Origin: Methanoregula sp.
GTDB taxonomy: Archaea > Halobacteriota > Methanomicrobia > Methanomicrobiales > Methanospirillaceae
Reading direction: 5' to 3'
Length of the DNA stretch: 54,502 nt
NCBI GenBank assembly: GCA_022711635.1
Contig: JAKLEQ010000003.1
Coordinates: forward strand, 1-54,502
Below, piece by piece: positions 19,897 through 37,637 of the stretch. Each line of letters begins with the position of its first letter. The first letter of the stretch is position 1. A program made the position numbers and the translations under genes. Under the pieces are notes generated by a model. The model saw only the letters and a program-made list of their open reading frames with translations, was not told the DNA's origin and did not search any database.

Positions 19897-19898
19897 GA

Positions 19899-22336: not shown

Positions 22337-22445
22337 CGTTGGGGATCGTCATCATGGATTGTTGCCGTTCGGGATATCCCGTCCATCTCACCTTGTATGC
22401 TGGTGTGTAAAAAAAGTAAAAAACCCCGGGAACGTATATCACCGT

Positions 22446-23529: not shown

Positions 23530-23604
23530 GCTGCTATAGTGTAGACCGGCCAATCATGCGGGCCTTTCACGCCCGCGACTGGGGTTCAAATCCCCATAGC
23601 AGCA
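23530..23604 (+). tRNA. tRNA-Glu (anticodon UUC); its 3' end is the integration site of the element
   Basis: Acceptor stem GCTGCTA/TAGCAGC, anticodon stem-loop CGGGC-CTTTCAC-GCCCG, T-arm GGGGTTCAAATCCCC. Closely resembles canonical archaeal tRNA-Glu. Confidence 0.92.
23592..23604 (+). repeat. attL core (3' end of tRNA-Glu)
   Basis: CCCCATAGCAGCA, identical to 37625-37637. Confidence 0.8.
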
Positions 23605-23827
23605 TACGGACGATGGGTTGCGTTCTAATTCAAAAATAGAGCCTGTTTTCGATACGATTCTGAAAAATACCGCAGATTGCAATAGTGGCCTTTTTTCCCT
23701 TTCCGGCATCCGAACATACCGACCCCCTCCATAAAGTGCCACAGAATGAAGATATGAGGCGGTTTCCCGGGCGTCCTTTCTGCACCGCACCCGGGGAACG
23801 TGGAGGGTTGGAAAAGAGAGGGCAGGG

Positions 23828-24118
23828 TCAGATCAATTCTGTTTCGAGCTTCCGGATCTCATCCTTCAATTTTTCAAAATCGTTTTGCCGCCTTTGCATC
23901 CACCAGAGTCCGAACCCTGCGATCACAGCCCCTGATACAACCAGGAGAAGTGAGAAGTAGCCGAGGCATCCCCAGGTGAAGATCAATGCCCCAAGGATAA
24001 TTACGAGGGAAGGGCCGGATATACTGTTCCGCCCCCGCTCGTTCTTCTTCGTCTCGATCCTCCGATAAATGGTTGCATTGTGTCGTTCTTTGTCGGTCAG
24101 TCCTGAACCAGATTGCAT
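23828..24118 (-). CDS. small two-TM membrane protein with a C-terminal coiled coil (element cargo, function unknown)
   Basis: Two hydrophobic helices, SLVIILGALIFTWGCLGYF and SLLLVVSGAVIAGFGLWWM, are followed by NDFEKLKDEIRKLETELI. Confidence 0.5.
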   Translation of the reverse strand: MQSGSGLTDKERHNATIYRRIETKKNERGRNSISGPSLVIILGALIFTWGCLGYFSLLLVVSGAVIAGFGLWWMQRRQNDFEKLKDEIRKLETELI

Positions 24119-24321
24119 TTATAATCACTCTCGGTTATCTTCCTGAATCCACTCCGCTGTTCTCTGTAGCCTGGACGATAAGGGTCCTGACTGTTTCACA
24201 AGCCCTCGGAAATCCGTCCGACCCCATCGGGCCCGGCGGGGAACTACCCTGCAGGGACAAAATGTCACAGCAGCTAGGGATAATAAAATGAGAGGGTAGA
24301 GAGAGCTTTCACGCGCTACGC

Positions 24322-24990
24322 TCAGGATGGCTCCTGATCGAGGTCGTACTTCTTCGCGAGCCGGTCCCGGTCACGTTTCGACAGGCCGCAGCGCTCCCCC
24401 AGCATGAAGCCCTCGATGTTCGCCTCGATATTGTCCATCATGTCCTCGTCCCGGTCTTTACCGGTGATCGCATAATATTCGTCGATGAGATCCACCCAGG
24501 CCTGCGGAACCTTGATCTTCAGCACTGCCATACCATCCGGCAGGACCTCATTCTCCCGGGTCTTCCGGATCGCCGAGGCGAACCTGCCGATGACCTCCCT
24601 CTCCTTGAGGGCAGCCGCGACCGCTTCCCGGAGCTGACTGCCGCCATAGAACCCCTCACTCCAGGCCTCGACATCGCAGACCGTCACCTGCGGGAATGCT
24701 TCCTTCACGAGGTCCCGGATCTTTCCCCGGAGATCGTAATACGCATCCATATCGGCGTCAGCCAGGTGCTCGCCGTTCTCGAAGATGATCCTGATCTGCC
24801 CGTTCCACGGCGGGGTCCCGGGTTCCCCCTTATGCCGGGGTTCGTTGTCGATCGAGCCCCCGCTCACTTCGGGGAACCCGCAGATCAGTTTCAGGATCTT
24901 CTCCTGCACCTTATCGTACTTCTCGGGGTGGGCCGCTTTAATCTCTGCCCCGCCCTCGATAATGACATTCACGTCCATGTGTTCAATCAC
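24322..24990 (-). CDS. hypothetical acidic protein (element cargo)
   Basis: A 222-aa ORF with coding-like composition. No recognisable motif. Confidence 0.55.
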   Translation of the reverse strand: MIEHMDVNVIIEGGAEIKAAHPEKYDKVQEKILKLICGFPEVSGGSIDNEPRHKGEPGTPPWNGQIRIIFENGEHLADADMDAYYDLRGKIRDLVKEAFPQVTVCDVEAWSEGFYGGSQLREAVAAALKEREVIGRFASAIRKTRENEVLPDGMAVLKIKVPQAWVDLIDEYYAITGKDRDEDMMDNIEANIEGFMLGERCGLSKRDRDRLAKKYDLDQEPS

Positions 24991-25021
24991 TCCTATCGCG
25001 TCTTCAAGCTCCCCGGGCTAT

Positions 25022-25405
25022 CTACTGCCGGATCATCGCCCTGGTTGCCTCGCGCCGCACGACTTGGAGGAACGCGGACCAGTATACAAGGAGGTCCCCG
25101 CCGCTATCGGTCGTCTGGATCTTCAGGAACCGCCCGGAGATCGACCGGGTTGCATGGCCGACCTTCTGCCGGACCATCGGGCCGCCCGGCTCCTCGTGCC
25201 TGCGGTAGACCGGTACCGGCAGGGTCCACCGGTCCTTTGCGATACAAAGCAGCCCGCCGGCGTCGATGTAGGCCGCGTGATCCTCCCCGAAGGAATGATA
25301 GGAAATCTTCAGGGCGTCGCCATCCATGGTGATGCTTTCGGCCTTCCGGGTTACCGTGCAAGGGATCGCGGTCGATTGCTGCGGGTGGTGGGTTGTTTCG
25401 GTCAT
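25022..25405 (-). CDS. hypothetical protein (element cargo)
   Basis: The ORF lies upstream of and on the same strand as 24322-24990. The start is ATG 25405 or 25426. No recognisable motif. Confidence 0.5.
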   Translation of the reverse strand: MTETTHHPQQSTAIPCTVTRKAESITMDGDALKISYHSFGEDHAAYIDAGGLLCIAKDRWTLPVPVYRRHEEPGGPMVRQKVGHATRSISGRFLKIQTTDSGGDLLVYWSAFLQVVRREATRAMIRQ

Positions 25406-25426
25406 CAATTGTAATCCTGTCGCCAT

Positions 25427-25488
25427 TTGTTGCTACAAATAGCAATAAGCCCCAACGTATATATATTTTGTTGCTACATGTTGTTACA
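25427..25488. promoter_or_regulatory. divergent promoter with direct repeats flanking a TATA-like box
   Basis: TTGTTGCTACA occurs at 25427-25437 and 25468-25478, with a degenerate third copy TGTTGTTACA at 25479-25488. GTATATATATTTT lies between them. Confidence 0.45.
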
Positions 25489-25674
25489 ATGAGCGACACT
25501 TATACGGTCCGTATCGAGAGGAAAGGATTTGAGCAGGGGATAAAGGCCTATGATATGGTTGAAAAGACCGTCTCGAATGGTGGGAATAGTGCCCGCGTGT
25601 TTGTGCCGAAGACGTGGGCGGGAAAAACTGTGAAGGTCCTACTACTTGAACCGCTGGATGAGGAAGAAAGGTAG
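25489..25674 (+). CDS. DUF2080-like small AbrB/SpoVT-fold DNA-binding protein
   Basis: VEKTVSNGGNSARVFVPKTWAGKTVKVLLLEP matches the GNS..V.VPK.W.GK.V.V pattern of the archaeal DUF2080 'transposon-encoded' family. 61 aa. Confidence 0.65.
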   Translation: MSDTYTVRIERKGFEQGIKAYDMVEKTVSNGGNSARVFVPKTWAGKTVKVLLLEPLDEEER

Positions 25675-25675
25675 C

Positions 25676-26092
25676 ATGGCAGACCGGGATAAACTCGATC
25701 GGAATGTGCGGGAGCTGGTATATTTCCTGAATCTACTTCCGGGGATTCGGACGTATGCCTCGTGTGGCGGGCATGGAAAATTAAATGATCGAGTGAATCC
25801 CGTGCCTAAGGGGGAGTTCTACGTCAGCCTTATAGTCCCTGTCGAAGATCCTGATGGCTCTATTGAAAAGAGTCTTTCTGTAATCAGAGATGCCGCGAAG
25901 GTTTTTGAGGGTAAAATCACTTTCGAGAGAGATGCGGAAGAAGAGGGGTTCCCGGTGAAAGATGGTCACTGTTCATGGACGATAAATGGTAAGGGAATCA
26001 GGCCGCTTGATTTTGCCATAGTGCTTTTAAGTGAAGAGGGAGGCCGGCTCGAAAAAGAAGTCGACGCCCTCATTGAGAGGCGGGGCTGGTAG
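25676..26092 (+). CDS. hypothetical protein coupled to the DUF2080-like gene
   Basis: The ATG lies 1 nt after the upstream stop. 138 aa, with a TYASCGGHG motif. No family recognised by eye. Confidence 0.55.
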   Translation: MADRDKLDRNVRELVYFLNLLPGIRTYASCGGHGKLNDRVNPVPKGEFYVSLIVPVEDPDGSIEKSLSVIRDAAKVFEGKITFERDAEEEGFPVKDGHCSWTINGKGIRPLDFAIVLLSEEGGRLEKEVDALIERRGW

Positions 26093-26131
26093 TCCCGATC
26101 TCCCCGGTCCACAGTGCCCCATTTATATCCC

Positions 26132-27859
26132 TTATCCCAACGGGCGTATGAGGTGGTCGGTACGTATTCCTTTCAGTACGAGATCGCTGTCGGTCATCTT
26201 GTCCCGTTGGAGCTCTTTAATATCTCGCATTATCTCGTCGATCCGGTAGTCTTTTGATGCGTTCACGGTGATATGGTATGTATTCGTCTCGGTGACCTGC
26301 GGGGGGGCAGCCGTTGCTTGCGAGAGGAACGGCCTCGGCAGCTCTCCAACAGATGGGGCCGGCATCCCAAAATCCGATCTTACCGTCAGGCCGTAAGGAT
26401 CCTTAATCCCCTGGACTGCTGCAGCGGGAGTCGCTGCGGGGCTACTCAGCTCCTGTAAGGCAACGACAGTGGCGCCAAGGGTGGATGCCTCGATCTCTTC
26501 GGCAGAGATGTCCTGTGCATTCTCCCGCATTGCTCTCCGATAATTCTTAAGGACCGACCGGAACTGGTCGCCACCGAGCCCGACGGCGTCCTGCAGGTCT
26601 TCGATAGCGTCAGTGGTCAGATCGTTCTCATCCTGTTTGAGATCGTTAATGCGCTGGAGAGAGTCTGCGTGTGCATCGGTTGCACGGGTGAGCTCTTTCT
26701 GCAGGTCGACCGCTGTTTCCAGGGGATCGACAATACCGAGCGCGACCTTTTCCGAAGCATCATCCGTGCTATCCACCCACTTCTGCATCTCCGTATCCCA
26801 GATCGCGCCCTCGAAATATCCGGCGGCACGGAGGGCGTCCTGCGTCTGTTCTGACTGGAGCCACGAGACAAGATCCTTTCCGGTCTTCATCGCGCCAGCG
26901 GCATCGCCTGTGATGAATTGAAAGGCAGCCCTCGCTTCCTGTCCGGTGATATGGAACCCCCGGGCGGCTGCCGTCAGGAACCCGTCGAGGTTCTTGAAGA
27001 AAGTATCGATCGGCCCCCCGGTCTGGAGCGCCCCGCTGTTCAGGAGATCATTCCACTCGGCGAACGATCCGGAGAGGTCGGTGCCGACAGTATAATTCAG
27101 GTGCTGGAATGTGCCATCGAGGTCCTTGACGCTCTTCTCGTAATCGCGGAGCTTCTCCTCCTGTTCTGCCGTGAGCGTGTTGGCGGTGTTGTAATAGTTC
27201 TCAATGCCCTCCTTTCCGAGAGCGATGTATCCCGCGACGTTCTGGTATGATCTGCCGATAAGGGCATTGGAGGCTGTCACCCGGTCCCCGGATGAGGAGA
27301 GATTCCTTAGTCCCTGGATCACTTCCGGAAAGACTTCGTTCATCGACCGCATGGTGCCGTCGGAGTTCTTGTAGGAGACGCTCATCTGGTCGAGGATGGC
27401 CCGGGCCTGGTCGCCTGCCTCGCCCTGGTCGTTGAGATTGAGCTGGAGCCGGTTGATCATCGAGGCGAGGTCGCCGATGTTGCTATCGGCGTACCGGGCG
27501 ACGTTGCCCCACCGCTGGAGCTCCTCATTGCTCAGGCCAGTTGTGGTGCCGAGCCGGTCCATGGTGCTGACATACTCGGCGGCCTGGTCCGCGAGTTCCT
27601 TGAACTCTTGAACAGTCGCAGCTGCTGCAAGGCCGACAGCAGCGATAGGGGCAACTGTCGCACCGATCGCGGTACCCCATTTTGCCATCTCGAGAGTGTT
27701 TGCATTCGTTGCATCCCGCCAGTCGGTCAGGTCCCCTATCATCTTTGATGTGGCGTTCCGGGTGCTGCTCTCGATCTTTGAGAGGGCGGTGTCTACTTGC
27801 CCGCTCGCCTCGTCTTTAAGGCTCAGCACTACTGCAAGAGTGCCGATGATATCCGTCAT
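26132..27859 (-). CDS. tail tape measure protein (TP901-type core)
   Basis: 575 aa and helix-rich. A hydrophobic segment GTAIGATVAPIAAVGLAAAATV is followed by TTGLSNEELQRWGNVARYADSNIGDLASMINRL and ILDQMSVSYKNSDGTMRSMNEVFPEVIQGLRNL...ASNALIGRSYQ. This follows the conserved tape-measure core pattern. Confidence 0.65.
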   Translation of the reverse strand: MTDIIGTLAVVLSLKDEASGQVDTALSKIESSTRNATSKMIGDLTDWRDATNANTLEMAKWGTAIGATVAPIAAVGLAAAATVQEFKELADQAAEYVSTMDRLGTTTGLSNEELQRWGNVARYADSNIGDLASMINRLQLNLNDQGEAGDQARAILDQMSVSYKNSDGTMRSMNEVFPEVIQGLRNLSSSGDRVTASNALIGRSYQNVAGYIALGKEGIENYYNTANTLTAEQEEKLRDYEKSVKDLDGTFQHLNYTVGTDLSGSFAEWNDLLNSGALQTGGPIDTFFKNLDGFLTAAARGFHITGQEARAAFQFITGDAAGAMKTGKDLVSWLQSEQTQDALRAAGYFEGAIWDTEMQKWVDSTDDASEKVALGIVDPLETAVDLQKELTRATDAHADSLQRINDLKQDENDLTTDAIEDLQDAVGLGGDQFRSVLKNYRRAMRENAQDISAEEIEASTLGATVVALQELSSPAATPAAAVQGIKDPYGLTVRSDFGMPAPSVGELPRPFLSQATAAPPQVTETNTYHITVNASKDYRIDEIMRDIKELQRDKMTDSDLVLKGIRTDHLIRPLG

Positions 27860-27861
27860 CG

Positions 27862-28248
27862 TTATCCACCTCTCTTTTCCTTCTTCTCTCGTTCAAACCT
27901 CAGTATGACATCAGTCGCGACCGGGTGATCCTGGGTAAATTTCTGCCAGGTATCGTCAAGCTCCTGGCATACCTTGGTTTGTTCATCGACATCCAGCTGC
28001 AGTTTTTCGACGAAAGCTTCGCGGTCTACGATTTTTTGGGGGACTACCGGGGCCGGGGCCTTTTTCCCCCAATCCAGCAGGAATTTCCGGTTTGTGAGGA
28101 TCCCGGAATGCAGTGCCTGCCGTTCCCGGATGATCGATCCTTCGTAGAGTTCCATCCTGGAAAGGATATTCTGCTCCCGGGCTTCGAGCTCAGCCAGCCG
28201 CTTCTTCATCTCGGCAAGCTCGGTCTCTTCGATCTGTACAAGTGCCAT
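27862..28248 (-). CDS. coiled-coil protein immediately upstream of the tape measure gene (possible tail assembly chaperone or scaffold)
   Basis: Begins MALVQIEETELAEMKKRLAELEAREQNIL. It ends 2 nt before the tape measure ATG. A GAAGGTGA RBS-like motif precedes ATG 28248. Confidence 0.5.
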   Translation of the reverse strand: MALVQIEETELAEMKKRLAELEAREQNILSRMELYEGSIIRERQALHSGILTNRKFLLDWGKKAPAPVVPQKIVDREAFVEKLQLDVDEQTKVCQELDDTWQKFTQDHPVATDVILRFEREKKEKRGG

Positions 28249-28261
28249 AAGTGTCACCTTC

Positions 28262-28756
28262 TCAATGCGGGAGATCCTTCGCTGCAACAACGATATGGCC
28301 TGCCTTCAGTTTCCGCACGAGCTCGGCCGCCCCTTCGCGAGTGACCCGGCCCTGAAGATGAAGGGCGCCATACACCGAGGGCCACCGGTCCTGAGGGCAA
28401 TCCGGCCAATGATCCTGCATAAAATTGTACTGGTCGTTTGCGTTCCGGAGGTTGTACTCCTTCCCACCGCTCCGAATGTAAGCAGGACCGTACGTCCTTT
28501 CCTGGTCTCCAAAGTCTTCGATCACCTGGCCGTTCATTACGATCTTCGTAGCCGTGATGGTGTCCGGGTCGGCGATGCGGGCCGGGGGTGCCGGCTTGGC
28601 GCTGTGGATCCGGAACATCTTTTCATCGGTAGTCTCTGCTGCTGCAGCAGGGGATTTTACCCACTTGAGGTTTCGTACATCTTCGCGGACCTTGCGCCCG
28701 AACTGGCGCATCTCTGCAGCCAGGCGATTCATTCTTTCGTCAAGAGTTTCTGTCAT
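28262..28756 (-). CDS. hypothetical protein between terL and the tape-measure module
   Basis: A 164-aa ORF in the same operon orientation. No recognisable motif. Confidence 0.5.
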   Translation of the reverse strand: MTETLDERMNRLAAEMRQFGRKVREDVRNLKWVKSPAAAAETTDEKMFRIHSAKPAPPARIADPDTITATKIVMNGQVIEDFGDQERTYGPAYIRSGGKEYNLRNANDQYNFMQDHWPDCPQDRWPSVYGALHLQGRVTREGAAELVRKLKAGHIVVAAKDLPH

Positions 28757-28863
28757 GGTTTCAATCCTTTACTTTAAGTTAGTGTGAAAAATTTTGAGAG
28801 GAGTCTGAAGGTTCCTGAACAGGGCTCGCCGGTCCTCATCATGCCGGGTCATTGCCCATATGT

Positions 28864-30348
28864 TCACCATAGCGGATCCACCTCGAAGGACCGGGATCGC
28901 TTCCCTGGCTGCTGACCCCAGCCGCCCGGGCCGAACCCGGCAGCGTGCTCAAGGGTAAGATCTGACCCCCCGAATCCATCCCGGCTGCAGCCGAAGACGA
29001 GCATCAGGGCGTCGGCCCGGTCAGGACTTGCCATTCCCCGGCGTTTCATGTCGTCTTTGCTCTCGATCTGGATCTGCCCGCGGGAGTTGACCTTGTACCG
29101 GATGGCGGAGAGCTGGGAGACGAGGGTCTCATCGTCCGGGATGTCGATCTCCCCTTCCTCGAACCGGGTGCGGAGTTCCCCCCACCACTCGGCCCGGGCG
29201 TTGGCGAAGCGTTCCTTGTCCTTCGCTGCCATCCCGCTCTGCATCTCCTGGACCGGGATCCCCTGCTCGTTCAGCCGGTCGAAGACCCCCGCACCGATGC
29301 CGATGCTGTCGATCTTCGCGAGCGTGGCGCCGGTTTCCCTGATGGCCTGGATGACGGCCCCCGCTGTCTCCATGGTGTCGGACATCGGGAGGACCTTGTG
29401 GATCCGGGCGTGGTTGCCGTACCGGCAGAAGATGACCGTCTCGTCGCTCCCAAACCGTGCCACGTCCACCCCCAGCTCGACAGGCGGTCCTGGTTCGATG
29501 GTGCGCTCGATCGCGGCCTCGATATGGTGTAGCGGGATGAGGGTGTCGGCCCCGGAGAGCGGGAACTGCGCGAGGACCTTGCTCTTGTAGAGCGGGCTCT
29601 CGGGTCCCCAGCGTTTCACCCGGTCGGCTACCCATCCAGGAGTGACGAGATACGGGGCGGGCAGGGGGCCGGTCACCTTCTCCTTCCAGGTCCCGTCCAG
29701 GATGTCCTGCTCGGCGAGGCCGTACCGGGTGAAGTTCGGCGTGTCGAAGGCACTGATCGAGATCTTCGAGGCGCCCATCCCTCCCGCGAACTCCTTGAAG
29801 AACCGGCCCGCCGGGTTTGTCGGGTTCCCGATCATGAGGAGCCGTGACTCATCAGAGGTGAGCACGCCATCGATCGCGTCGAAGATGTCCTCCGAGATGC
29901 CGCTCGCTTCATCAGCGATCACGAGGATGTAAACGGCATGGAATCCCTGGAACTTGTCGGCGGAATATTCCGGCGCCGTGAATCCAACTGCCCACCAGTC
30001 GTTTTCGAGCTTCAGCTCCTGGTTGAGGCAATTGCCCTGAAGCGGGACCTTCGCCCGCTGGTGACTCGTCCGGATCTCCTTCCAGAGGATCCCGGTCACC
30101 TGCCGGTCGGTCGGGGCAGTCGTAATCACGAGGCTGCGGGGGTGAGTGTAGAGGAACCAGAGGGCCGCGCAGGCTGCCACGTGACTCTTCCCCGCAGCAT
30201 GGCAGCTCTTGACGGCTGTCACCTTGTTATCCCGCACGCTTTCCAGGATCTCGACTTGCTTCTGCCAGGGCTCGTGCCCGAGGACCTCCCGAACCCAGAG
30301 GGCAGGGTCGAAGAAGTGGCGGAGGGCGGAAGTAGTCATCTGATCCAT
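28864..30348 (-). CDS. terL: terminase large subunit
   Basis: Walker A VKSCHAAGKSHV and Walker B ILVIADEASGI. The nuclease domain has GVDVARFGSDETVI, KIDSIGIGAGV and SPDRADALMLVF acidic motifs. 494 aa with no disruptions. Confidence 0.85.
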   Translation of the reverse strand: MDQMTTSALRHFFDPALWVREVLGHEPWQKQVEILESVRDNKVTAVKSCHAAGKSHVAACAALWFLYTHPRSLVITTAPTDRQVTGILWKEIRTSHQRAKVPLQGNCLNQELKLENDWWAVGFTAPEYSADKFQGFHAVYILVIADEASGISEDIFDAIDGVLTSDESRLLMIGNPTNPAGRFFKEFAGGMGASKISISAFDTPNFTRYGLAEQDILDGTWKEKVTGPLPAPYLVTPGWVADRVKRWGPESPLYKSKVLAQFPLSGADTLIPLHHIEAAIERTIEPGPPVELGVDVARFGSDETVIFCRYGNHARIHKVLPMSDTMETAGAVIQAIRETGATLAKIDSIGIGAGVFDRLNEQGIPVQEMQSGMAAKDKERFANARAEWWGELRTRFEEGEIDIPDDETLVSQLSAIRYKVNSRGQIQIESKDDMKRRGMASPDRADALMLVFGCSRDGFGGSDLTLEHAAGFGPGGWGQQPGKRSRSFEVDPLW

Positions 30349-30731
30349 TCCTCCGTTGTCAGCAAGGGGTCGGGATGCACCCGGGGCCTTGATGGGTTTC
30401 CTCTATCGCTCCCGAAGCAGGACGGCCCGACATGACCCTGCCGGACGGTCCCGGCTTGCCTGCAGTGTGCGAGGGCCTCTGCAGCGCAATGAAAGGACCC
30501 GGCGCGACCGGTGAGGCTCCGGCAGGGACCGGAGGCACCACCCAGGGCAACTGCCTCGGCGTACGTGATCTCGCGGTCGATATCCTTTATGTGCTCCTCC
30601 AGGGCTGCCCGCTGCTCTTTCAGACATCGGAGGACCTGGCGGGGGGCCGTCGGGGACGTAACATAACCGGGGAGGCGGGAGTGAAGACGTGGCAGGACCG
30701 CGAGCGGGCCGGTGATGAATGAGCAGGTCAT
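30336..30731 (-). CDS. hypothetical protein overlapping the terL start
   Basis: A 131-aa ORF that overlaps the terL ATG by 13 nt. The sequence is somewhat low-complexity, so coding status is uncertain. Confidence 0.35.
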   Translation of the reverse strand: MTCSFITGPLAVLPRLHSRLPGYVTSPTAPRQVLRCLKEQRAALEEHIKDIDREITYAEAVALGGASGPCRSLTGRAGSFHCAAEALAHCRQAGTVRQGHVGPSCFGSDRGNPSRPRVHPDPLLTTEEWIR

Positions 30732-30954
30732 GATCGGGCGGCCTCCGTCGGAGTGCTGTTTTGTCCCAATGGCAGCGTAACCTTTAAAAGAACACTTTCG
30801 ATTAATCCTACACGAGAAATATAATAAAGGATTATCTCAATGAATTGAGCCGCGTTTATTTTCTGCCGTCGTGCACTTTTTATACTTGATGTAGAATTAT
30901 TGCGGAGAATCGCCGTTATGCGAACTCTGTTCTGCCCGGCCCGGTCAGACCATT

Positions 30955-31473
30955 TCATAACCCGGCCTCCTGGAGCGCTTCGTCGAGCTCCTGCCGGATC
31001 TCGGGATGTCTTTGGAGGACCTGGAGGATAATGAGGTAATCGGGGGACTTTTGGTAAGAGATCGCCACAGGGTTGTTGATCTGTATGGCGGTAGATGGCC
31101 CCAACAGGCGCATGAGCCGGGCCTGGAGGTCGAGGAGCTCGCGGGCTTCCTTCATGGTCGCGATCTCATGTTTCCGGTCCCGATCCTGCTGGCACTCATC
31201 CAGGAGGCGCTTTGCCCGGAGGCCGAGGCCCTTTACCTGCCCGAGCACGTCATCGTCCCCAGTCGCGGTTGCCGCGATCTCTTCCATCTTCAGGCGCTGG
31301 ACCGCTTTCTGCTGCTGCTCCGTGACCTGCATGTGCTGACGGTGGCGGGATAAAGCCGCCTTCGAAACGTTCCACTGTCTCTCGATTTTCCTGTAACTTG
31401 TTCCGATAAGCAACTCCGCGTTGATTTTTTCGAGGTCCGGGTGATTACAGATACCACATCTACATCCAGTCAT
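30955..31473 (-). CDS. HTH DNA-binding protein, small-terminase-like
   Basis: MTGCRCGICNHPDLEKINAELLIGTSYRKIERQWNVSKAALSRHRQH is a CxxC + HTH N-terminus seen in phage small terminases and regulators. A coiled-coil oligomerisation-like region follows. It is located upstream of terL. Confidence 0.45.
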   Translation of the reverse strand: MTGCRCGICNHPDLEKINAELLIGTSYRKIERQWNVSKAALSRHRQHMQVTEQQQKAVQRLKMEEIAATATGDDDVLGQVKGLGLRAKRLLDECQQDRDRKHEIATMKEARELLDLQARLMRLLGPSTAIQINNPVAISYQKSPDYLIILQVLQRHPEIRQELDEALQEAGL

Positions 31474-33223
31474 TTCGAGCGACCTCCCGGGCGGCATCCG
31501 AGCCCCCGCCGGCAGCCTTCCATGCCGCTTGGAATTGTTCGTAATGCGGAGGGCGGCCGGGCAGATAGGACATAAGAATTTCTGAGAGTTCTTTCAGGGA
31601 TTTACCAGCCCATGAAATTTCAACGTCGCTACCCGACGTTACATGTGCAGGATGTGCAGGTTCTGACGCACTTACTTTTTCTATACGTAAAATACCGGAC
31701 TCCTCCTTTTCTTTTACGCGTAATAAGTTGGAACTTTCCTGCACATCCTGCACCGAAGCCATTTTCTCCGACGTGTTTTCGGGGTGATTGTGCAGGATGT
31801 TCAGGATATCGCCATCTTTCAGTGTCGTGTCCGGGAAGATTGCGAGACTGTCTTTGATCTTAAATCCCTGGAAACAATGCTCCCTCCGGGACCTGATGGA
31901 CGGGTATGTATCGATCGCCCCTGCCTGTTTCATCAGCTCGAACAGGGCCCTCTGGCTCTCGACTTCGAACTCGGCATCGTTGCAGTATTCGACGTACATT
32001 GCATACACGTCCCGCTTGACCAGGATCGCCCCCCGGCACCGTTCCAGTCTGTCCCGGATGAAAGCGTAACCCGAGGATGCATCAGACAGCCAATCCCGCT
32101 CGACATTATCGGTGGTTTCGAGCCTTTTTGCCTGGATAATGGCGGTCATACGCTCGATGACCAGGAGGAGGAGGCCCGACACGAACTCGTCCGTGAAGTG
32201 CGTTTTCTCGAACTCCGGATCCTTCGGAAACGATCCGTTGAAGTTGATGGCGATCCAGCGGTCCCACCATGCGGCATCAGCGCCTTTGATTTTCGGGTAC
32301 CGGTTGGCAGAGAAGAGGAACACCGCCTTGTTGACCGTGGCGTATGGATCCCGGTGCTTCCGTTCGACCGTGATGGCATCCCCGCCCGTCAGTGCTTTGA
32401 AGAGGCCAAGGTTGGAGATCCTGGAGTCCGCGAGGTCCGCGTAAGCGTTCAGGATCTTCCCGTCGAGGTCGGCGAGCCGGAACCGGTCGAAGAGAAGGTC
32501 GTGGATGCTGATGCTGGAGCAGATTGCAGGTCCGAAGAGATGATGGGTGATCAACCTGGTGAAGGTCGACTTCCCGCTGTCCCTGTCGCCGCGGAGGAAG
32601 TACGCCCGCTTGTAAACCCGGCCAAGCATCGAGAGGATTGCATGCGCCGGGATCTGCAGGAGGAGGTCCCGCTCGACCCCGAGGGAATCGAGATATTTTA
32701 AGACCGCTGCTGTGCCGGCATCCGGGATGTATTTTGCCTTGAGCTTGTAGTTGAACCGGAACTCCGGGGAATGCGGCTGCAGGGAGACGGCGCCGGTATT
32801 GAAATCCAGCACCAGGACCCCGTTCTCGAGCGGGATTGCGTTGGGAGACTGGTTGAACGGGTACTCCCTGCAGGGAGAGTCGAAGCGGATATAGTGCAAA
32901 ACCTGCGCGGTTGCGGTTGTTACCTTTTCCTTTGCACCGATCCCGCGGTACTGCAGGATAACCTGGATCTGGCTCTCCAGCTCCCCCTTATCCTCCGTGA
33001 AGATACCGTCCCTGTACCGGTACACAATATTGTTGAAAGAGACGAGATCCCCCGTCCGGAGGAGTTCCTGCGCGATCGCGTAATAATCGACGCCGGTGTT
33101 TTTCTCATCGGCAGCCCGTTCCAGGGCGATCCGTTCCACCTCTTTCTTTCGTGCGCCCTCAGTGAGGGCATCGACGCGGGCCTGCTCTTCAGGAGTCAGG
33201 ACGATATCCTGCGGGGGCGTCAT
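31460..33223 (-). CDS. D5/P4-family SF3 helicase (primase-helicase C-terminal type replication protein)
   Basis: D5_N-like region YPFNQSPNAIPLENGVLVL, Walker A GDRDSGKSTFTRLI and Walker B-like KILNAYADLAD. ATG 33223 forms an ATGA overlap with the upstream ORF. Confidence 0.8.
   Translation of the reverse strand: MTPPQDIVLTPEEQARVDALTEGARKKEVERIALERAADEKNTGVDYYAIAQELLRTGDLVSFNNIVYRYRDGIFTEDKGELESQIQVILQYRGIGAKEKVTTATAQVLHYIRFDSPCREYPFNQSPNAIPLENGVLVLDFNTGAVSLQPHSPEFRFNYKLKAKYIPDAGTAAVLKYLDSLGVERDLLLQIPAHAILSMLGRVYKRAYFLRGDRDSGKSTFTRLITHHLFGPAICSSISIHDLLFDRFRLADLDGKILNAYADLADSRISNLGLFKALTGGDAITVERKHRDPYATVNKAVFLFSANRYPKIKGADAAWWDRWIAINFNGSFPKDPEFEKTHFTDEFVSGLLLLVIERMTAIIQAKRLETTDNVERDWLSDASSGYAFIRDRLERCRGAILVKRDVYAMYVEYCNDAEFEVESQRALFELMKQAGAIDTYPSIRSRREHCFQGFKIKDSLAIFPDTTLKDGDILNILHNHPENTSEKMASVQDVQESSNLLRVKEKEESGILRIEKVSASEPAHPAHVTSGSDVEISWAGKSLKELSEILMSYLPGRPPHYEQFQAAWKAAGGGSDAAREVARNDWM
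31645..31805. repeat. iteron-like repeats flanking an AT-rich core (candidate replication origin) inside the 3' part of the helicase gene
   Basis: GTGCAGGATGTGCAGG lies at 31645-31660. Its exact inverted copy CCTGCACATCCTGCAC lies at 31738-31753. A third direct copy GTGCAGGATGTTCAGG lies at 31790-31805. The 77-bp spacer between the first two is AT-rich. Confidence 0.5.
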
Positions 33224-33594
33224 GGCAGGTACCCTCGGCTCTCCATGAAGTCCGTGCATCGATCGATAATGTCCTTCTCGGCGCAGAGATCGTAACCGAA
33301 GATCTTGAACCCGTGGCGATACTCCAGGGCGACCATCAACTCCCATCCGGAGCGGCATCCGAGCGGGAGGAATGCCTCGCGGCCCGGTGGTACATATGCC
33401 TCCGGCACGTGCACGCTGCTCCCATGGCGCGGCTCCCGCTCACTGAAGGGCGAGGTCCGGGGGATTTCGCCGTCCATCTGCCGCCGCCTGAACAGGGTCT
33501 TTTTCCAGTACGCTGCCTTCTGCTCGTCGGTATATCCCGGCGGCCAAAAGTCCGGCGACATCGCGGGGACCGGCCCGGTGGCATCAGAGGTCAT
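33220..33594 (-). CDS. hypothetical protein (early operon)
   Basis: A 124-aa ORF with ATGA overlaps at both ends. Confidence 0.5.
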   Translation of the reverse strand: MTSDATGPVPAMSPDFWPPGYTDEQKAAYWKKTLFRRRQMDGEIPRTSPFSEREPRHGSSVHVPEAYVPPGREAFLPLGCRSGWELMVALEYRHGFKIFGYDLCAEKDIIDRCTDFMESRGYLP

Positions 33595-33809
33595 GGGGTC
33601 CGCCCCCGCCCCATTTCGTCCGATACGAGAAGTAAGGCACCGATCAATTCCTCGTACGTCAGCAGCACCTCGCCATTCGAGAGGGCAACCGCATCGGTGA
33701 CTACGTGCGTACTGTCATCGAACAGCTGATCGAGACAGAAGAGAACAGCTTCCCGGGTCGACAGATCCGGCCTCCCGCCGTTCAGATCCTCGCGTGAAAA
33801 GCCTTTCAT
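33591..33809 (-). CDS. hypothetical protein (early operon)
   Basis: A 72-aa acidic ORF with ATGA overlaps at both ends. Confidence 0.45.
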   Translation of the reverse strand: MKGFSREDLNGGRPDLSTREAVLFCLDQLFDDSTHVVTDAVALSNGEVLLTYEELIGALLLVSDEMGRGRTP

Positions 33810-34000
33810 GTACGGGCACCCCGTTTCGTGAGCTCTTCGAGCAGGTGGTCGCGGACCTGGATGGCGACATCGACACGACGGATGCTCTCGTTATAATCCG
33901 CCGAGTCGAAGCTGACGGAAAGAACTCCGGATTTTCCGGGTGTGCCGATGGTCAGCCGATCCTGGAACCGGCTCTGGTTGATAACCGGGGCGTCGGTCAC
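33806..34000 (-). CDS. hypothetical protein (early operon)
   Basis: The GTG at 34000 forms a GTGA overlap with the upstream stop. 64 aa. Confidence 0.4.
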   Translation of the reverse strand: MTDAPVINQSRFQDRLTIGTPGKSGVLSVSFDSADYNESIRRVDVAIQVRDHLLEELTKRGART

Positions 34001-34344
34001 GTCTCCACTCCCCCAAGAAGCGAAAGGAAGTCCGACCACCTGAGTATTACCCGCGGCTCGGTCCGGTTGCGCCGGAAGACCAGGAGCGGGTGGAGGCCCT
34101 CCTTCGCGGCGTTGGCCTCACACTGCTCGATCGATTTCCAGACATCAAGGCGCTCGACATTTTTGCACTCGACGCCGTATGGGAAGACGTCCCGGGCTGC
34201 TTTGGACAAGTAGATATCGCACCCGGCCTGCCCCATTGCGGTGCTCTGGATATCGACCTCCTGGATCCCGATCCGGGTGATGAGGTCCTGCCGGATCTCC
34301 AGCTGGAAATGCCTGCCCTTCGCTTTGCAGCTCCGGGGCATCAT
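33997..34344 (-). CDS. PD-(D/E)XK nuclease, Holliday-junction-resolvase-like
   Basis: MMPRSCKAKGRHFQLEIRQDL...GCDIYL...PYGVECKNVERLDVWKSIEQ follows the K-G-x-x-F-E / D / E-x-K pattern of phage/archaeal resolvases. Confidence 0.6.
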   Translation of the reverse strand: MMPRSCKAKGRHFQLEIRQDLITRIGIQEVDIQSTAMGQAGCDIYLSKAARDVFPYGVECKNVERLDVWKSIEQCEANAAKEGLHPLLVFRRNRTEPRVILRWSDFLSLLGGVET

Positions 34345-34598
34345 GACCGACACCTCATGCAGCCGCGGACCGGTCTTGGAGGTCGTGCAGGTGGAAGCAT
34401 AACCCGGATCCTCTGGATGCCGTCAGGTCCGATCACTGGCTCCAATTGCTCGAGAACCCACTCTCGCAGCACTATCGGGAGCGGGGAGAGCGTATCGATC
34501 CAAGATGCATATTCCCCGATCGTAAAGCCTCGCCCTTCGTGGAATCGATCCACGAGCCTGCGGGCGACAAGATCCGGGCGTCCATTCCAGCGCGTCAA
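34341..34598 (-). CDS. hypothetical protein (early operon)
   Basis: An 85-aa ORF with ATGA overlaps. Confidence 0.45.
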   Translation of the reverse strand: MTRWNGRPDLVARRLVDRFHEGRGFTIGEYASWIDTLSPLPIVLREWVLEQLEPVIGPDGIQRIRVMLPPARPPRPVRGCMRCRS

Positions 34599-34783
34599 TG
34601 GATCACCCCGGCCTTTACGAGATCCTCGACCGTGCGGTCATCATTATGCAGCCGGTAGAGGCGGGCGATCTGCTCCTGTTGCCCCCGGGTCAGGCGCTCG
34701 ATATCGTCATCGACGCTGCGCAGGAGGGAGAGCGCATCCGCCCGTGTCGATGGGGTCCATTTAGGCGAGAATTGTCTCGACAT
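34595..34783 (-). CDS. hypothetical protein (early operon)
   Basis: A 62-aa ORF, first of the overlapping chain. Confidence 0.4.
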   Translation of the reverse strand: MSRQFSPKWTPSTRADALSLLRSVDDDIERLTRGQQEQIARLYRLHNDDRTVEDLVKAGVIH

Positions 34784-34843
34784 GGTCCCTCTCTGTTCCC
34801 GGGGCGGTTCCCCCGATCTGGTCGTTGGTGGTGATAATTCCCG

Positions 34844-34999
34844 TCAAATCAACCGCCACCGACCATCTGCGATTGCGATCTCGGCTGCGGCCCGGTGGAG
34901 GTCCGGCAGGTGTGAAAGAGTCTCCCGGTCAATGGTGAATCCGGGAATCGGTCGGGCTTTTGGCAAAGGTTTTGTCGTTTGAGAGGCAGACGGTGTCAT
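34844..34999 (-). CDS. hypothetical small protein
   Basis: ATG 34999 forms an ATGA overlap with the RHH gene stop. 51 aa. Confidence 0.35.
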   Translation of the reverse strand: MTPSASQTTKPLPKARPIPGFTIDRETLSHLPDLHRAAAEIAIADGRWRLI

Positions 35000-35211
35000 G
35001 TCCTTTGCCTCCGGGCAATGGGCGGTGCGGTGGAGGGCTGACCGGCTGGCACTGGCGTCCCCCCATCGCATCTCCTCAATCGTTCCTCAAGCGTTTCTCG
35101 GACAAGGCCGGAGATGTTGATCTTCAGTGACCGTGCCTGGGCGTGAAGATCTTCCGGGATCATGATGCTCGTTTGGGTGTAGACAATCCCACCCCGTCGA
35201 ACGGACGACAT
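34996..35211 (-). CDS. ribbon-helix-helix (CopG/CcdA-like) DNA-binding protein, probable element regulator
   Basis: TSIMIPEDLHAQARSLKINISGLVRETLEERL is a beta-strand plus two-helix RHH pattern. It is the first gene of the leftward operon, next to a divergent TATA-containing promoter. Confidence 0.6.
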   Translation of the reverse strand: MSSVRRGGIVYTQTSIMIPEDLHAQARSLKINISGLVRETLEERLRRCDGGTPVPAGQPSTAPPIARRQRT

Positions 35212-35281
35212 TATGTATAGTAGAATAGCGCATAGCATTATATAGGAAATCGCGCAATATCTAACGAATTAATTTGGAACG

Positions 35282-36256
35282 ATGAGATTATTTTGGATTG
35301 ATTGCAGGGATACCGCCAAAATTCGGCCTGAAACACTTTTCCGATTACAGGATCTCACCCATCAAATGAAAAACCATCGAGGGGGGGATCTTCAGAATTT
35401 ATACCATCCCGATGTAACTGGCTGGTCCTATGCAATTGCCATAGCGTTGATAAAAACAACGTCGGCAAAAACTTATTGGAAACAGCCTCTCAAGATGGCA
35501 TTTTACGTACCGGTAAAGAAGTTCAAAAAGAACAGGGGTCCCGGGGAATGTGAGCGATACGACGGGGTTAAAAGTAACCTCTACATGGGATCGCTTCAAT
35601 CAACTCCTGGAGGGTTTGTTCCGCGCGATACGGTTTTCCGTCGCCATGATCCCCCCGTAAATATAAGAACAACAATATTATGCGCTGGCTGGGTGGGAAA
35701 AGAAGACGATCTATTTTTGTCCCGGGATCCCAAACGGCCCTGGGAGATCTCGATAAGTATGTCGCGTACCGGGAATCGTCGCCTTATCTTCCTTGCAGTC
35801 CTAAATTGCGAATGGGGGACAATCCGCCCGAAATGGTGGCCCCAGGAGTGGCGTGATGATCCTCGCCGATCCTCTGGTGAAAATGTCATTAAGAGATTAC
35901 TTCGCGGCATAACCTGGGTGTATAATCCGTTCAACATTGACAAGGCCCGCCCCCGGGAGTATATTAAAAAAGTGATTAAAGAGGAGAAGAAACGGGTTTG
36001 TAAACGGGACCCCGACCGCCCGTTCGAGGGATTGACTGTTTACCCCCCGCCGAAGACAAAAACCGATTTCGATAAGCTTCATGAGCACGATCGCCGGGAT
36101 TTCGCGAGGTTTATGGAAATGGAAAATATGAAATGGTGCGAGTGGTGCGGGAGGCGTTTTATCGCGATGCGGAGCGATGCCCGAGCCTGCCCGCGGTCGG
36201 CTTGTAAGAAGGCACTCTCTCGAAAGTCACCGGTAAGAAAATATCGAAAAACCTGA
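35282..36256 (+). CDS. orphan protein with a C-terminal zinc-ribbon (element cargo, opposite strand, lower GC)
   Basis: 324 aa and basic. C-terminal CEWCGRRF...ACPRSAC. TTATATAG lies about 35 nt upstream of the ATG. The region is visibly more AT-rich than its surroundings. Confidence 0.6.
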   Translation: MRLFWIDCRDTAKIRPETLFRLQDLTHQMKNHRGGDLQNLYHPDVTGWSYAIAIALIKTTSAKTYWKQPLKMAFYVPVKKFKKNRGPGECERYDGVKSNLYMGSLQSTPGGFVPRDTVFRRHDPPVNIRTTILCAGWVGKEDDLFLSRDPKRPWEISISMSRTGNRRLIFLAVLNCEWGTIRPKWWPQEWRDDPRRSSGENVIKRLLRGITWVYNPFNIDKARPREYIKKVIKEEKKRVCKRDPDRPFEGLTVYPPPKTKTDFDKLHEHDRRDFARFMEMENMKWCEWCGRRFIAMRSDARACPRSACKKALSRKSPVRKYRKT

Positions 36257-36281
36257 AAATTGAACGCCGATGAGAGGGGAT

Positions 36282-37559
36282 TTATACTATCCCTCTCTTG
36301 ACGGCAATCAGTTGATCCTGCAAATCTTTCACCTGCTGTTGGAGATGCTTGAACTCCGGTAAAAGTTCGGCCTGTTCCATGACGGTCTTCACCCTCTCCC
36401 GGTCCTCTTCGGTGAGCGCCGTCTCGCACTTCACGCACCATCTCCGGGTCGGTCCGTTGATCTCCCCGCAGTGAGGGCATTGCCGGGGCTCAAGGATCTT
36501 TGACTTGGTCCTCTCTCCCATCTCCACCCCTGCTACCCGGGCCATCTCGTTCACGACATCAGCCCCCCCGACATGGTTATAACACTTGTCAAACATCGTC
36601 GTTGCCGGGTCCCCCCATCCAAGGAGTTTAATCATGCTCTCCTGGGTGCCGTCCTGCACGAGGTGGGTTATCCGTGAATGCCGGAAGATGTGCGGGGTAA
36701 CGTGTTTCTGGATACCGGCACGCCCGGCGATTTTCCGGATCTGCTTCGCGATGCCGGCATACTGCAGCTGGTTACGACCCGAGCGTTTCCCGCCGCCATT
36801 CGCGGTGAGGAAAACGAACCGGTCCCCGGCAGGCTCCCCGGGGTAATCATTCTTCCATGCCGAGAGGTATTCCCGGGCCATGAACAATGGAATAATCCGG
36901 GTCTTCTCCGTTTTGAACCGGACCTTCAGGGTTGCATTGACATTGGTAAACGTGACCTGATTCCACCGCAGCGTACCAAGTTCGCCGATGCGGAGGGCGC
37001 CTTCATACAGGACAGACACGATCGCCCGGTCCCGGGAGTTCTGGCAGGCTCGCAGCATCGCGTGAACCTCTTCCCTTGAAAAAATCGAGTCCTCGGTCTT
37101 GACATCGTACCGGTATGCCGGCGGGGAAATTTCCTTCAGTTTCTTATAGGGGATAGTGGACCTTTCATTGTCCACAAGCCAGAGGAAAAACCGCTTCATG
37201 AACCGGACGAAATCGGCCTGGGTATTCTGTTTATACCGGGTGCTCCCGTCCGGCTTCTGTGTGGTCTCGATCGCCTCCCTCGCGGCATACACATCCTTGA
37301 TGCCACATTCGGGGAATGGCCTCGGCAGGAACTCACGCACTCCGATGAGCGTCACCGTGATTTTAAAGACCCGGGCTGTCGTGATCTTCCGGCTCCTCGC
37401 ACGAAGCTCCTGGGTAAATTCAAGGATGAGGTCCGCGTCTGCCTGGGAGATCCTCCCCTCCGTCACCGCCCTTGACAGGGCGCTCGTCGAATACCTCCGA
37501 TATGTCTCATCAGAAGTATGAAAATGGCTAATGCTCTCTTGACCGGCTGGCGTGGTCAT
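36282..37559 (-). CDS. int: tyrosine recombinase / integrase with a C-terminal zinc-ribbon and coiled-coil extension
   Basis: Catalytic-domain motifs LYEGALRIGEL (Arg), HIFRHSRITHL (H-x-x-R) and KCYNHV (Tyr). The tail contains CPHCGEINGPTRRWCVKCE. It is adjacent to attR. Confidence 0.85.
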   Translation of the reverse strand: MTTPAGQESISHFHTSDETYRRYSTSALSRAVTEGRISQADADLILEFTQELRARSRKITTARVFKITVTLIGVREFLPRPFPECGIKDVYAAREAIETTQKPDGSTRYKQNTQADFVRFMKRFFLWLVDNERSTIPYKKLKEISPPAYRYDVKTEDSIFSREEVHAMLRACQNSRDRAIVSVLYEGALRIGELGTLRWNQVTFTNVNATLKVRFKTEKTRIIPLFMAREYLSAWKNDYPGEPAGDRFVFLTANGGGKRSGRNQLQYAGIAKQIRKIAGRAGIQKHVTPHIFRHSRITHLVQDGTQESMIKLLGWGDPATTMFDKCYNHVGGADVVNEMARVAGVEMGERTKSKILEPRQCPHCGEINGPTRRWCVKCETALTEEDRERVKTVMEQAELLPEFKHLQQQVKDLQDQLIAVKRGIV

Positions 37560-37624
37560 GGATTAAAGTTGGGCTAACTTCTATATAATAGTTTCCCAAC
37601 AGAACATAACCCAAGGTCTATATG

Positions 37625-37637
37625 CCCCATAGCAGCA
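37625..37637 (+). repeat. attR core
   Basis: CCCCATAGCAGCA, identical to the tRNA-Glu 3' end at 23592-23604. It lies 66 nt beyond the integrase start. Confidence 0.8.

Follow-up and report, generated by a model that had tools for sequence, protein, structure and literature searches.

The 54,502 nt of contig JAKLEQ010000003.1 (positions 1 to 54,502, forward strand; assembly GCA_022711635.1, Methanoregula sp.), which we refer to as the window, contain a 14,033-bp element integrated at a tRNA-Glu gene. The element encodes an intact large terminase subunit (TerL) and a protein resembling a small terminase subunit (TerS), and no capsid genes were detected in it. We consider it probable that this is an integrative element of the satellite type, dependent on a helper and hosted by a Methanomicrobiales methanogen, and that it belongs to a conserved family of such elements. 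An earlier note on this DNA, made from the letters alone, had offered a satellite that borrows structural proteins from a helper virus as one reading; the existence of a family, the signature of selection on its terminase, its mobility, and the sequence of the TerL tail now support that proposal, while encapsidation by a helper is the part that the sequences suggest.

The limits of the element were set by the comparison of occupied and empty sites. A tRNA-Glu(UUC) gene lies at 23530..23604 on the plus strand (ARAGORN and Rfam), and its last 13 nt (23592-23604) constitute the left attachment core, CCCCATAGCAGCA. The right core, with the same 13 nt, was read from the sequence at 37625..37637 (+), where it adjoins the tyrosine integrase gene (36282-37559), and its junction was checked against the empty site in locus L187. 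The repeats were spotted by eye starting from the 3′ end of the tRNA and then confirmed with the empty sites; a direct-repeat search with 12-nt seeds did not pick them up. Looking up the flanking host protein IlvE led to ten contig places in which the protein is 100% identical, four of them with an empty site (L187, L191, L193, and L196) and the other six, which do not include the window, with the element. At the empty sites, the tRNA is followed directly by an adenosine-kinase gene, that is, by the sequence lying to the right of 37637 in the window, and the join falls exactly at the 13-nt core, so the whole integrated element occupies 23605..37637 (no strand assigned) with one copy of the core counted. 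The candidate had previously been drawn at 26132-31473; the open reading frames (ORFs) described there are present, but the element extends well past them on both sides.

Carriage of the element varies within what looks like a single host population, and the copy in L183, at the same site, is 99.993% identical to that in the window. Anaerobic-digester communities are among the sources of the element (for example JGI 3300010429, 3300009776, and 3300009771 and ENA ERZ27257456). An integrase, 13-nt attachment repeats, sites found both empty and occupied, and a D5-like primase-helicase together mark it as a mobile element. The host can be taken to be a methanogen because genes for coenzyme F430 biosynthesis lie beside the insertion site, and probably one of the Methanomicrobiales because Methanoregula, Methanoculleus, and Methanomicrobiales metagenome-assembled genomes supply the nearest named relatives of the element's TerL. 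A related host, represented by L177 (3828-13841), has the same F430-biosynthesis/IlvE neighborhood as window 18679-23435, and there the element is inserted elsewhere, between hypC and hypA, which indicates that the family uses several integration targets.

TerL (28864..30348, minus strand, 494 aa; phrog_2, E = 6.5e-36) is matched by annotated phage terminases at 39-45% identity, and its nuclease domain matches the large terminases in PDB entries 8dkr and 4idh. It combines an N-terminal ATPase with Walker A (G53-K54-S55) and Walker B (D146-E147) motifs and a C-terminal RNase-H-like nuclease with the acidic residues D295, D347, and D443/D446. All of these are intact and invariant across 24 relatives, which bears out the earlier description of the enzyme as apparently intact. 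A search of genome contigs with this TerL returned distant bacterial relatives only and no methanogen genome. The family was built from the closest TerL relatives (71-95% identity), each placed in its contig.

Six further capsid-less loci, all from methanogen metagenomes, encode TerLs that group with that of the window. L001/L002, L176, L177, and L178 are integrase-bounded elements without a portal or capsid gene; they measure ∼9-10.5 kb where both ends are visible, and L178 measures at least 12.4 kb on a 12.8-kb contig. Their gene order is shared: integrase, an ORF on the opposite strand, small ORFs, a replication protein (D5-like or a MTBMA_p00010-like domain protein), a helix-turn-helix (HTH) protein, a small ORF, TerL, variable cargo, and then host genes. 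L096 is a 2.6-kb fragment whose TerL is 95% identical to the window's, and L179 holds a TerS-TerL module without a portal, with no integrase visible in the 18 kb available. Beside that module (L179:6057-15090) lie an RNase III-like ORF and genes for a Schlafen-like helicase, HIT, HNH, and NERD/UvrD proteins, which look like defense cargo. TerL is 71-89% identical between elements, compared with 27-66% for most other proteins of the common backbone. Even a permissive phmmer comparison revealed no homology among the ORFs that follow terL in the different elements, and L178 is the only relative in which the window's 164-aa ORF, tape measure, and distal cargo all have counterparts.

Neighbor-joining analysis (440 columns, 200 bootstraps) joined the seven capsid-less TerLs in a single clade (bootstrap 100%), whose sister group is the TerLs of complete viruses. 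All relatives at ≤73% TerL identity with a visible context are complete viruses, in which an ORF of portal size follows terL directly or within ∼1.2 kb. Within the capsid-less clade, the ratio of nonsynonymous to synonymous substitution rates (dN/dS) of TerL is 0.09-0.17, with dS mostly above 1 and hence saturated; between the complete viruses, it is 0.10-0.18, the same range. These values indicate a terminase that is kept functional by purifying selection in the long-term absence of linked capsid genes. The element copy in L188 departs from the window at just 14 positions in 7.8 kb. These substitutions are all synonymous, all in terL, and all confined to one 163-bp patch (window 29395-29557, terL codons 264-318). 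Because all 14 variants match, by eye, the 95%-related L096 terL, the patch looks like a product of gene conversion between co-circulating satellite lineages.

These data bear most directly on the possibility that the element is a defective provirus, the decaying remnant of a siphovirus like those in vir524 and L181 from which head and tail genes were deleted, with TerL and the tape measure left as functionless relics. Its TerL and its tape measure do both have homologues in one virus group, a deletion of ∼10.4 kb between terL and the tape-measure gene of vir524 would join the two, the tape measure is frameshifted in one copy (L183), and the analogous NitKor-E1 was read as a likely relic (Krupovic et al. 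2019, PMC6563490). Decay does not, however, account for six other capsid-less loci with the same architecture in one TerL clade at 100% bootstrap, for low dN/dS in a clade whose dS is saturated, or for 14 terL polymorphisms that are synonymous without exception. Nor would it predict an element that is still mobile, as its empty and occupied sites attest, with a D5-like primase replication module unrelated to vir524 genes. The ORFs are also tightly packed in the ORF list of the window, with no pseudogene debris, and all those named in the earlier note were found uninterrupted on the minus strand. We regard a defective provirus as very improbable; the TerL clade, the signature of selection, and the insertion polymorphism already go most of the way to refuting it. 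A recent deletion derivative, which the earlier note had kept as its alternative, does not hold up either: longer related viruses exist (L003, L180, L181, L182, and vir524), yet the capsid-less TerLs form their own fully supported clade at ratios far from the ∼1 expected. Taken together with the divergent non-viral backbone, the clade and its dN/dS indicate that the reduced architecture is old and maintained rather than the outcome of a recent deletion.

The absence of structural genes was examined throughout the 54.5-kb window. Sequence and profile methods (Pfam, PHROG, and PDB-sequence searches) detected no homologue of a portal, capsid, protease, or tail-tube protein at any position in it, and the ORFs of 11 complete related virus loci match the window at the tape measure, TerL, TerS, and integrase only. 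This agrees with the earlier note, which had also stated correctly that just two small ORFs, of 164 aa (28262-28756) and 128 aa (27862-28290), separate terL from the tape measure. The 324-, 222-, 164-, 142- (or 128-), and 134-aa ORFs matched nothing in the profile (Pfam, PHROG), defense-system (PADLOC), or PDB-sequence searches, and the 131-aa ORF matched nothing in Pfam, PHROGs, or PADLOC; library coverage varied by ORF, the smallest being scanned in fewer libraries or in none. A portal or capsid hidden among the unannotated ORFs was likewise not found by these methods. Where a complete Caudoviricetes provirus would have an HK97-fold capsid, a portal, and a TerL module, the element has TerL, the TerS-like protein, and the tape measure only, and in lacking capsid genes of its own in these searches it resembles a satellite.

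One could still imagine a miniature autonomous virus whose capsid and portal are too divergent to be recognized, given that about ten ORFs have no detectable homologues and that no structures were predicted for these. The coding space speaks against it. A single unassigned ORF reaches 300 aa, and so is long enough for a capsid or portal; all the others are ≤222 aa, too small for a portal. That one ORF, of 324 aa, encodes a basic protein with a C-terminal Cys cluster and lies on the other strand beside the integrase. L001, L176, and L177 have even less unassigned coding space, and the close virus relatives have ordinary, recognizable portals. We assign a hidden complete virus a nearly negligible probability.

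Upstream of terL lies the gene for the probable small terminase subunit (30955..31473, minus strand; 172 aa, or 180 aa if it starts from 31497), with a CxxC motif, an HTH, and then long helices. An exhaustive profile search gathered 4346 representative clusters of this family at E ≤ 1e-3. The family hidden Markov model matches the gene 12 nt upstream of terL in L018/L098 and 41 nt upstream in L182, all complete viruses, and also matches upstream of terL in every capsid-less relative. An AlphaFold2 model built from 72 sequences (pLDDT 87) is all-alpha, with an N-terminal three-helix HTH followed by long helices; a first model from five sequences was poor (pLDDT 63) and was set aside. Foldseek searches of the model against PDB and BFVD returned no significant match. 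A scan of 72 family members gave one member matching each of two PHROG TerS families and one matching Pfam Sf6_terminase. On gene position and architecture, the HTH protein is probably the TerS, an assignment that we treat as inferred because the fold searches were not significant. The small-terminase-like HTH protein of the earlier note is thus present, uninterrupted, and upstream of terL in viruses too, and it was the fold match to a known TerS that did not materialize.

Just downstream of the TerS-like gene, ∼160 nt are common to four elements at 56-77% identity (L001:9825-9990, L176:9655-9850, L177:9665-9860, and L178:5760-5950); the window is without this stretch. Its variable columns are spread over the three codon positions as 34/26/33 of 55, with no codon periodicity, and it holds the palindrome TTGCGCAGAA-N(2-6)-TTCTGCGCAA. 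The small protein that gene callers placed here was rejected on both counts, and because of them the stretch is probably a DNA site that acts in cis, for example in packaging or as an operator.

The part of TerL that follows the nuclease domain points to a particular group of helpers. Residues 462-474 (28927..28965, minus strand) form the motif SDLTLEHAAGFGP, which we predict to be a docking peptide for a portal of the vir524/L181 type. Vir524 (BK063669.1; our locus L197) is a complete, circular, 38.5-kb virus assigned to Methanomicrobiales, and L181 resembles it closely, with a portal 89% identical and other structural proteins 68-90% identical. The L181 TerL is 68% identical to the window's, while vir524's own TerL comes from an unrelated family, and the two share the last 26 residues only. 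Eight further IMG/VR loci have a vir524-type portal (91-100% identity) and TerLs 37-100% identical to that of vir524, and in all eight TerL ends with the same tail, SELTLEHAGGFGPQNNKMKIRGGLM. The motif SDLTLEHAAGFGP accordingly ends the TerLs of all ten loci with this portal type (L181 and L197-L205), whatever the TerL family, and the TerLs of the window and of L096 carry it at the corresponding position. Of the 120 TerL clusters nearest to the window's, only two have it, the window's own and that of L181, and DNA identity across it is 31/39. L018, whose TerL is sister to that of L181, differs from L181 in both portal and tail, and L003, L020, and L024 have another common tail with another portal type. 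Because the same tail accompanies vir524-type portals across TerL families and other tails accompany other portals, the tail follows the portal and not the TerL body. The C-termini of TerLs bind portals in T3, lambda, SPP1, and P22 (review PMC13595956), and the pattern seen here suggests that in this virus group the tail behaves as a module cognate to the portal and exchangeable among unrelated TerL families.

Several other features of TerL C-termini were recorded in the course of these comparisons. In the vir524, L181, and L198-L205 viruses, portals are 89-100% identical and TerL bodies have been swapped, with the same 25-residue tail kept. Some TerLs within this group or close to it, those of L177 (10001-12034), P0006, P0018, and P0034, measure 664-704 aa and have a ∼190-aa C-terminal extension after the nuclease domain. 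Those most identical to the window's (P0002-P0013 and P0048) tend to have long C-terminal tails of about 45-60 aa, compared with 15-30 aa in virus TerLs, and several of these long tails end in a W/L-x-L-E-D-Y-E-like motif, the genomic context having been checked for some only.

The second protein that ties the element to this virus group is a 575-aa tape-measure homologue (26132..27859, minus strand). It matches seven PHROG tape-measure families with E values from 1.8e-9 to 9.8e-5, and others more weakly; a Pfam PhageMin_Tail match (1e-3) fails the cutoff. Residues 1-259 are 30% identical to vir524_00037, which in that complete Methanomicrobiales virus occupies the tape-measure position between the tail-completion/tube-side genes and the distal tail genes, and the L178 homologue is 67% identical to vir524_00037 over its full length. 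Lengths are similar in the three (575 aa in the window, 566 aa in L178, and 552 aa in vir524). The identification rests both on family homology and on a homologue in the tape-measure position of a tailed virus. A search of IMG/VR found no relatives of the tape measure, and within the family it is present in two of six elements. In the L183 copy (113.9-kb contig, sample 3300010429; L189 was also compared), a 1-bp deletion near window 26868 changes GAGACAAG to GAGCAAG and splits the gene into 413 and 132 aa; either this is an assembly error or the tape measure is dispensable. Its presence in two of six elements, together with the frameshift in L183, marks the tape measure as accessory cargo in the family. 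The earlier note had identified the gene correctly, and it is as a core feature of the element that the gene does not stand.

Because the portal-matched tail and the tape measure both point to one virus group, we predict that siphoviruses of the vir524/L181 type are the helpers of this element. The same tail would equally suit an interference or defense island, in which TerS and TerL sabotage incoming viruses, by occupying portals or cutting concatemers, so that the host is protected and the element is inherited mainly vertically or by other means. The TerS-TerL module of L179 does lie beside defense-like genes (Schlafen-like helicase, NERD/UvrD, and HNH), and bacterial satellites commonly interfere with their helpers (see also Zhou et al. 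preprint). A pure decoy, however, needs neither intact ATPase and nuclease motifs nor a cognate TerS, all of which are conserved, and the integrase, the replication module, and the site polymorphism fit horizontal spread. The element also has no PADLOC match. We think that an island dedicated to interference is unlikely, and note that interference and hijacking are not exclusive and may coexist.

On the proposal of a helper-dependent satellite, integration into the tRNA-Glu by the tyrosine integrase, to which the att repeats and the occupied and empty sites attest, would be followed upon helper infection or induction by excision and by replication with the element's own D5-like primase-helicase, as its homology suggests. 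The TerS-like protein would recognize the element's own DNA, and TerL would cut and translocate it after docking on helper procapsids through the portal-matched C-terminal tail, a step to which the co-variation of tail and portal points. Element DNA would then be packaged in helper capsids and completed with helper tails. More speculatively, the tape measure might replace or supplement that of the helper in element-carrying tails. A 14-kb genome could be accommodated in a ∼38-kb capsid by the packaging of multimers or by redirection of capsid size by one of the small proteins.

Several observations weigh against this proposal. The element, at 14 kb, is much smaller than the roughly 38-kb genome of the predicted helper, and no capsid-size-redirecting gene was identified. 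The scan for vir524-type portals, which was limited, gave eight IMG/VR loci, none from samples with the element, and the window holds no hidden morphogenetic module and no helper provirus. The predicted circular (attP) junction, TCTATATGCCCCATAGCAGCATACGGACGATGG, was not found in IMG/VR, and neither was the 164-aa protein encoded downstream of terL. Other capsid-less clade members carry different TerL tails, and the tail motif of the window could have been inherited from an ancestral virus and not functionally retained. The tape measure is split in L183, and the case for TerS is made from gene position and architecture.

A terminase that serves the element's own DNA, through the resolution of concatemers or through packaging into vesicles or host-encoded particles, would dispense with a head-tailed helper altogether and leave an integrative plasmid-like element. 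Its backbone of primase-helicase, PD-(D/E)XK resolvase, and small ORFs does resemble that of small integrated Methanomicrobia elements (PMC4158269), and neither the contigs nor the samples with the element yielded a helper. Against this, terminases have been considered exclusive to head-tailed viruses and herpesviruses, with none known from a non-viral element by 2019 (PMC6563490), and a portal-cognate tail and a tape measure make sense only with head-tail virions. A plasmid-like element with no head-tailed helper is, in our judgment, quite unlikely.

The remaining genes of the element are consistent in their arrangement across the family, beginning with the integrase. This 425-aa protein (36282..37559, minus strand; Pfam Phage_integrase 3.2e-23, phrog_1 8.6e-31) ends in a zinc ribbon, and its orthologues at the same end of other elements are 66% (L178), 35% (L177), and 30% (L001) identical. 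Beside it on the opposite strand is the ORF for the Lys/Arg-rich 324-aa protein with the C-terminal Cys cluster (35282..36256, plus strand; ORF call), where GC content dips to 0.49 from about 0.57. An ORF of 167-324 aa is found at the same place and in the same orientation in L178, L176, L177, and L001, with sequence similarity only in L178, where the orthologue is 53% identical, and in part of L176, where it is partial. The 324-aa protein might, as a guess, be a regulator.

The early region (33591..35238, minus strand) encodes a CcdA-like protein of 80 aa (34996-35238, minus strand; CcdA 3.1e-6), a RusA-like/PD-(D/E)XK resolvase (33997-34353, minus strand; PDDEXK_15 5.7e-8, phrog_244 RusA-like 1.1e-20), and proteins of 77, 85, and 62 aa; the last three, p77, p85, and p62, are conserved in L001, L176, and L178. 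The replication module follows with the D5-like primase-helicase (31460..33358, minus strand; Pfam DUF5906 1.2e-17 and D5_N 4.9e-5, phrog_864 “DNA primase” 3.9e-59). Its longest ORF is 632 aa, and on identical copies (L183) gene callers give 587 aa from 33223 with a 124-aa ORF (33220-33594) ahead of it. Between the TerS-like gene and terL are two small ORFs of 76 and 131 aa (30336..30958, minus strand), an interval on which gene callers disagree; the part of the 131-aa ORF that is rich in Cys is similar to the small ORF directly preceding terL in L177 and L096.

Downstream of terL, the 164-aa protein (28262..28756, minus strand; ORF call) has a narrow distribution, with three clusters among 5.8 billion proteins and orthologues downstream of terL in L178 (59%) and L096 (68%). 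It was considered as a family marker and rejected on this distribution and on its absence from IMG/VR. The gene immediately preceding the tape measure (27862..28290, minus strand; 142 aa from TTG, 128 aa from ATG) encodes an acidic and probably helical protein, for which a chaperone role is possible; its 27% identical homologue in L178 is located after the tape measure, not before it. Distal cargo (23828..26092, mixed strands) comprises a 96-aa membrane protein (minus), a 222-aa ORF (minus), a 134-aa ORF (minus), and, on the plus strand, a DUF2080 protein (25393-25674; DUF2080 7.4e-6) paired with a 148-aa ORF (25646-26092; no match). This plus-strand pair (25393-26092) is embedded among minus-strand genes just past the tape measure. 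The 222-aa, 134-aa, and DUF2080 genes have homologues in L178, the last at the equivalent place, and beyond DUF2080 the distal cargo gave no match in the profile and sequence libraries scanned.

Comparison with known systems places the element closest to NitKor-E1 of Nitrosopumilus koreensis AR1, a single cryptic integrated element whose function was described as enigmatic and which its authors considered a likely relic (Krupovic et al. 2019, PMC6563490). In architecture, both are integrated archaeal elements with a tyrosine integrase and TerS upstream of TerL. In NitKor-E1, TerS is immediately upstream of TerL and there are no other head-tail genes, whereas here two small ORFs intervene and a tape measure is extra. 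NitKor-E1 is also a single instance, in contrast to a family with a monophyletic, selected TerL, insertion polymorphism, a portal-matched tail, and a tape measure in two members. Among viruses, the vir524/L181 group is the source group and candidate helper to which the tape measure, the TerL type (L181, 68%), and the tail motif point. These viruses are complete (vir524, about 38.5 kb), with portal, head-morphogenesis, neck, tail, and fiber genes and another replication module, none of which is in the element. Small integrated Methanomicrobia elements with a viral-type primase and a PD-(D/E)XK resolvase (Makarova et al. 2014, PMC4158269) are, by description, similar in host class, small size, and the pairing of a primase-helicase with a Holliday-junction-resolvase-like nuclease, but no terminase has been reported in them.

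Phage-inducible chromosomal islands (PICIs), including those of Staphylococcus aureus (SaPIs), offer the nearest bacterial parallel: a length of 10-15 kb, an integrase at one end, primase-type replication, a packaging-specificity gene, no capsid genes, and dependence on a helper, which here would follow from the sequences. PICIs are not known to contribute more to packaging than a small terminase or a TerS-redirecting protein, relying on the helper for TerL, and P4-like elements are not known to carry a terminase. The element differs in encoding an intact TerL and in its archaeal host, and no sequence relationship to PICIs was seen; PICI regulators (alpA/stl-type, pri-rep core) had no PHROG or Pfam match in it. 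Capsid-forming PICIs (cf-PICIs; Alqurainy et al. 2023) reportedly have their own terminases together with capsid, portal, protease, and connectors and steal tails only. The element shares with them a large and a small terminase of its own, but capsid, portal, protease, and connectors were not detected, and relative to cf-PICIs it would steal capsids and most of the tail. Archaeal satellites of spindle-shaped viruses have been described (pSSVx, pSSVi, and SRCEs; Zhou et al. preprint), as has NMV2S, a small ∼3.8-kb circular, terminase-less element proposed to be a satellite of a head-tailed Asgard virus (2026 preprint). All of these are archaeal and have proposed or demonstrated use of helper particles, and none uses a terminase.

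In a literature search that took in few subscription papers, we found no description, for any satellite, of a strategy in which an element's own terminase acts on stolen procapsids, nor of a terminase-bearing, capsid-less family. We judge it about evenly balanced whether these elements are the first recognized satellites of archaeal head-tailed viruses, which would encode their own terminase holoenzyme, exchange the TerL tail to match the portal of the helper, steal procapsids and tails, and in some cases contribute their own tape measure.

Satellites of bacterial viruses shape gene flow, defense, and virus ecology, and to our knowledge only satellites of spindle-shaped viruses are established in archaea. 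If the proposal is correct, satellite biology would extend to the head-tailed viruses of archaea, with a new mode of hijacking in which the element mounts its own motor on a stolen shell. It would also explain NitKor-E1, left “enigmatic” in 2019. The portal-matched tail provides a testable prediction of the helper and a handle on terminase-portal recognition. Methanomicrobiales matter for methane formation in digesters and wetlands, and elements that interfere with their viruses would bear on that ecology.

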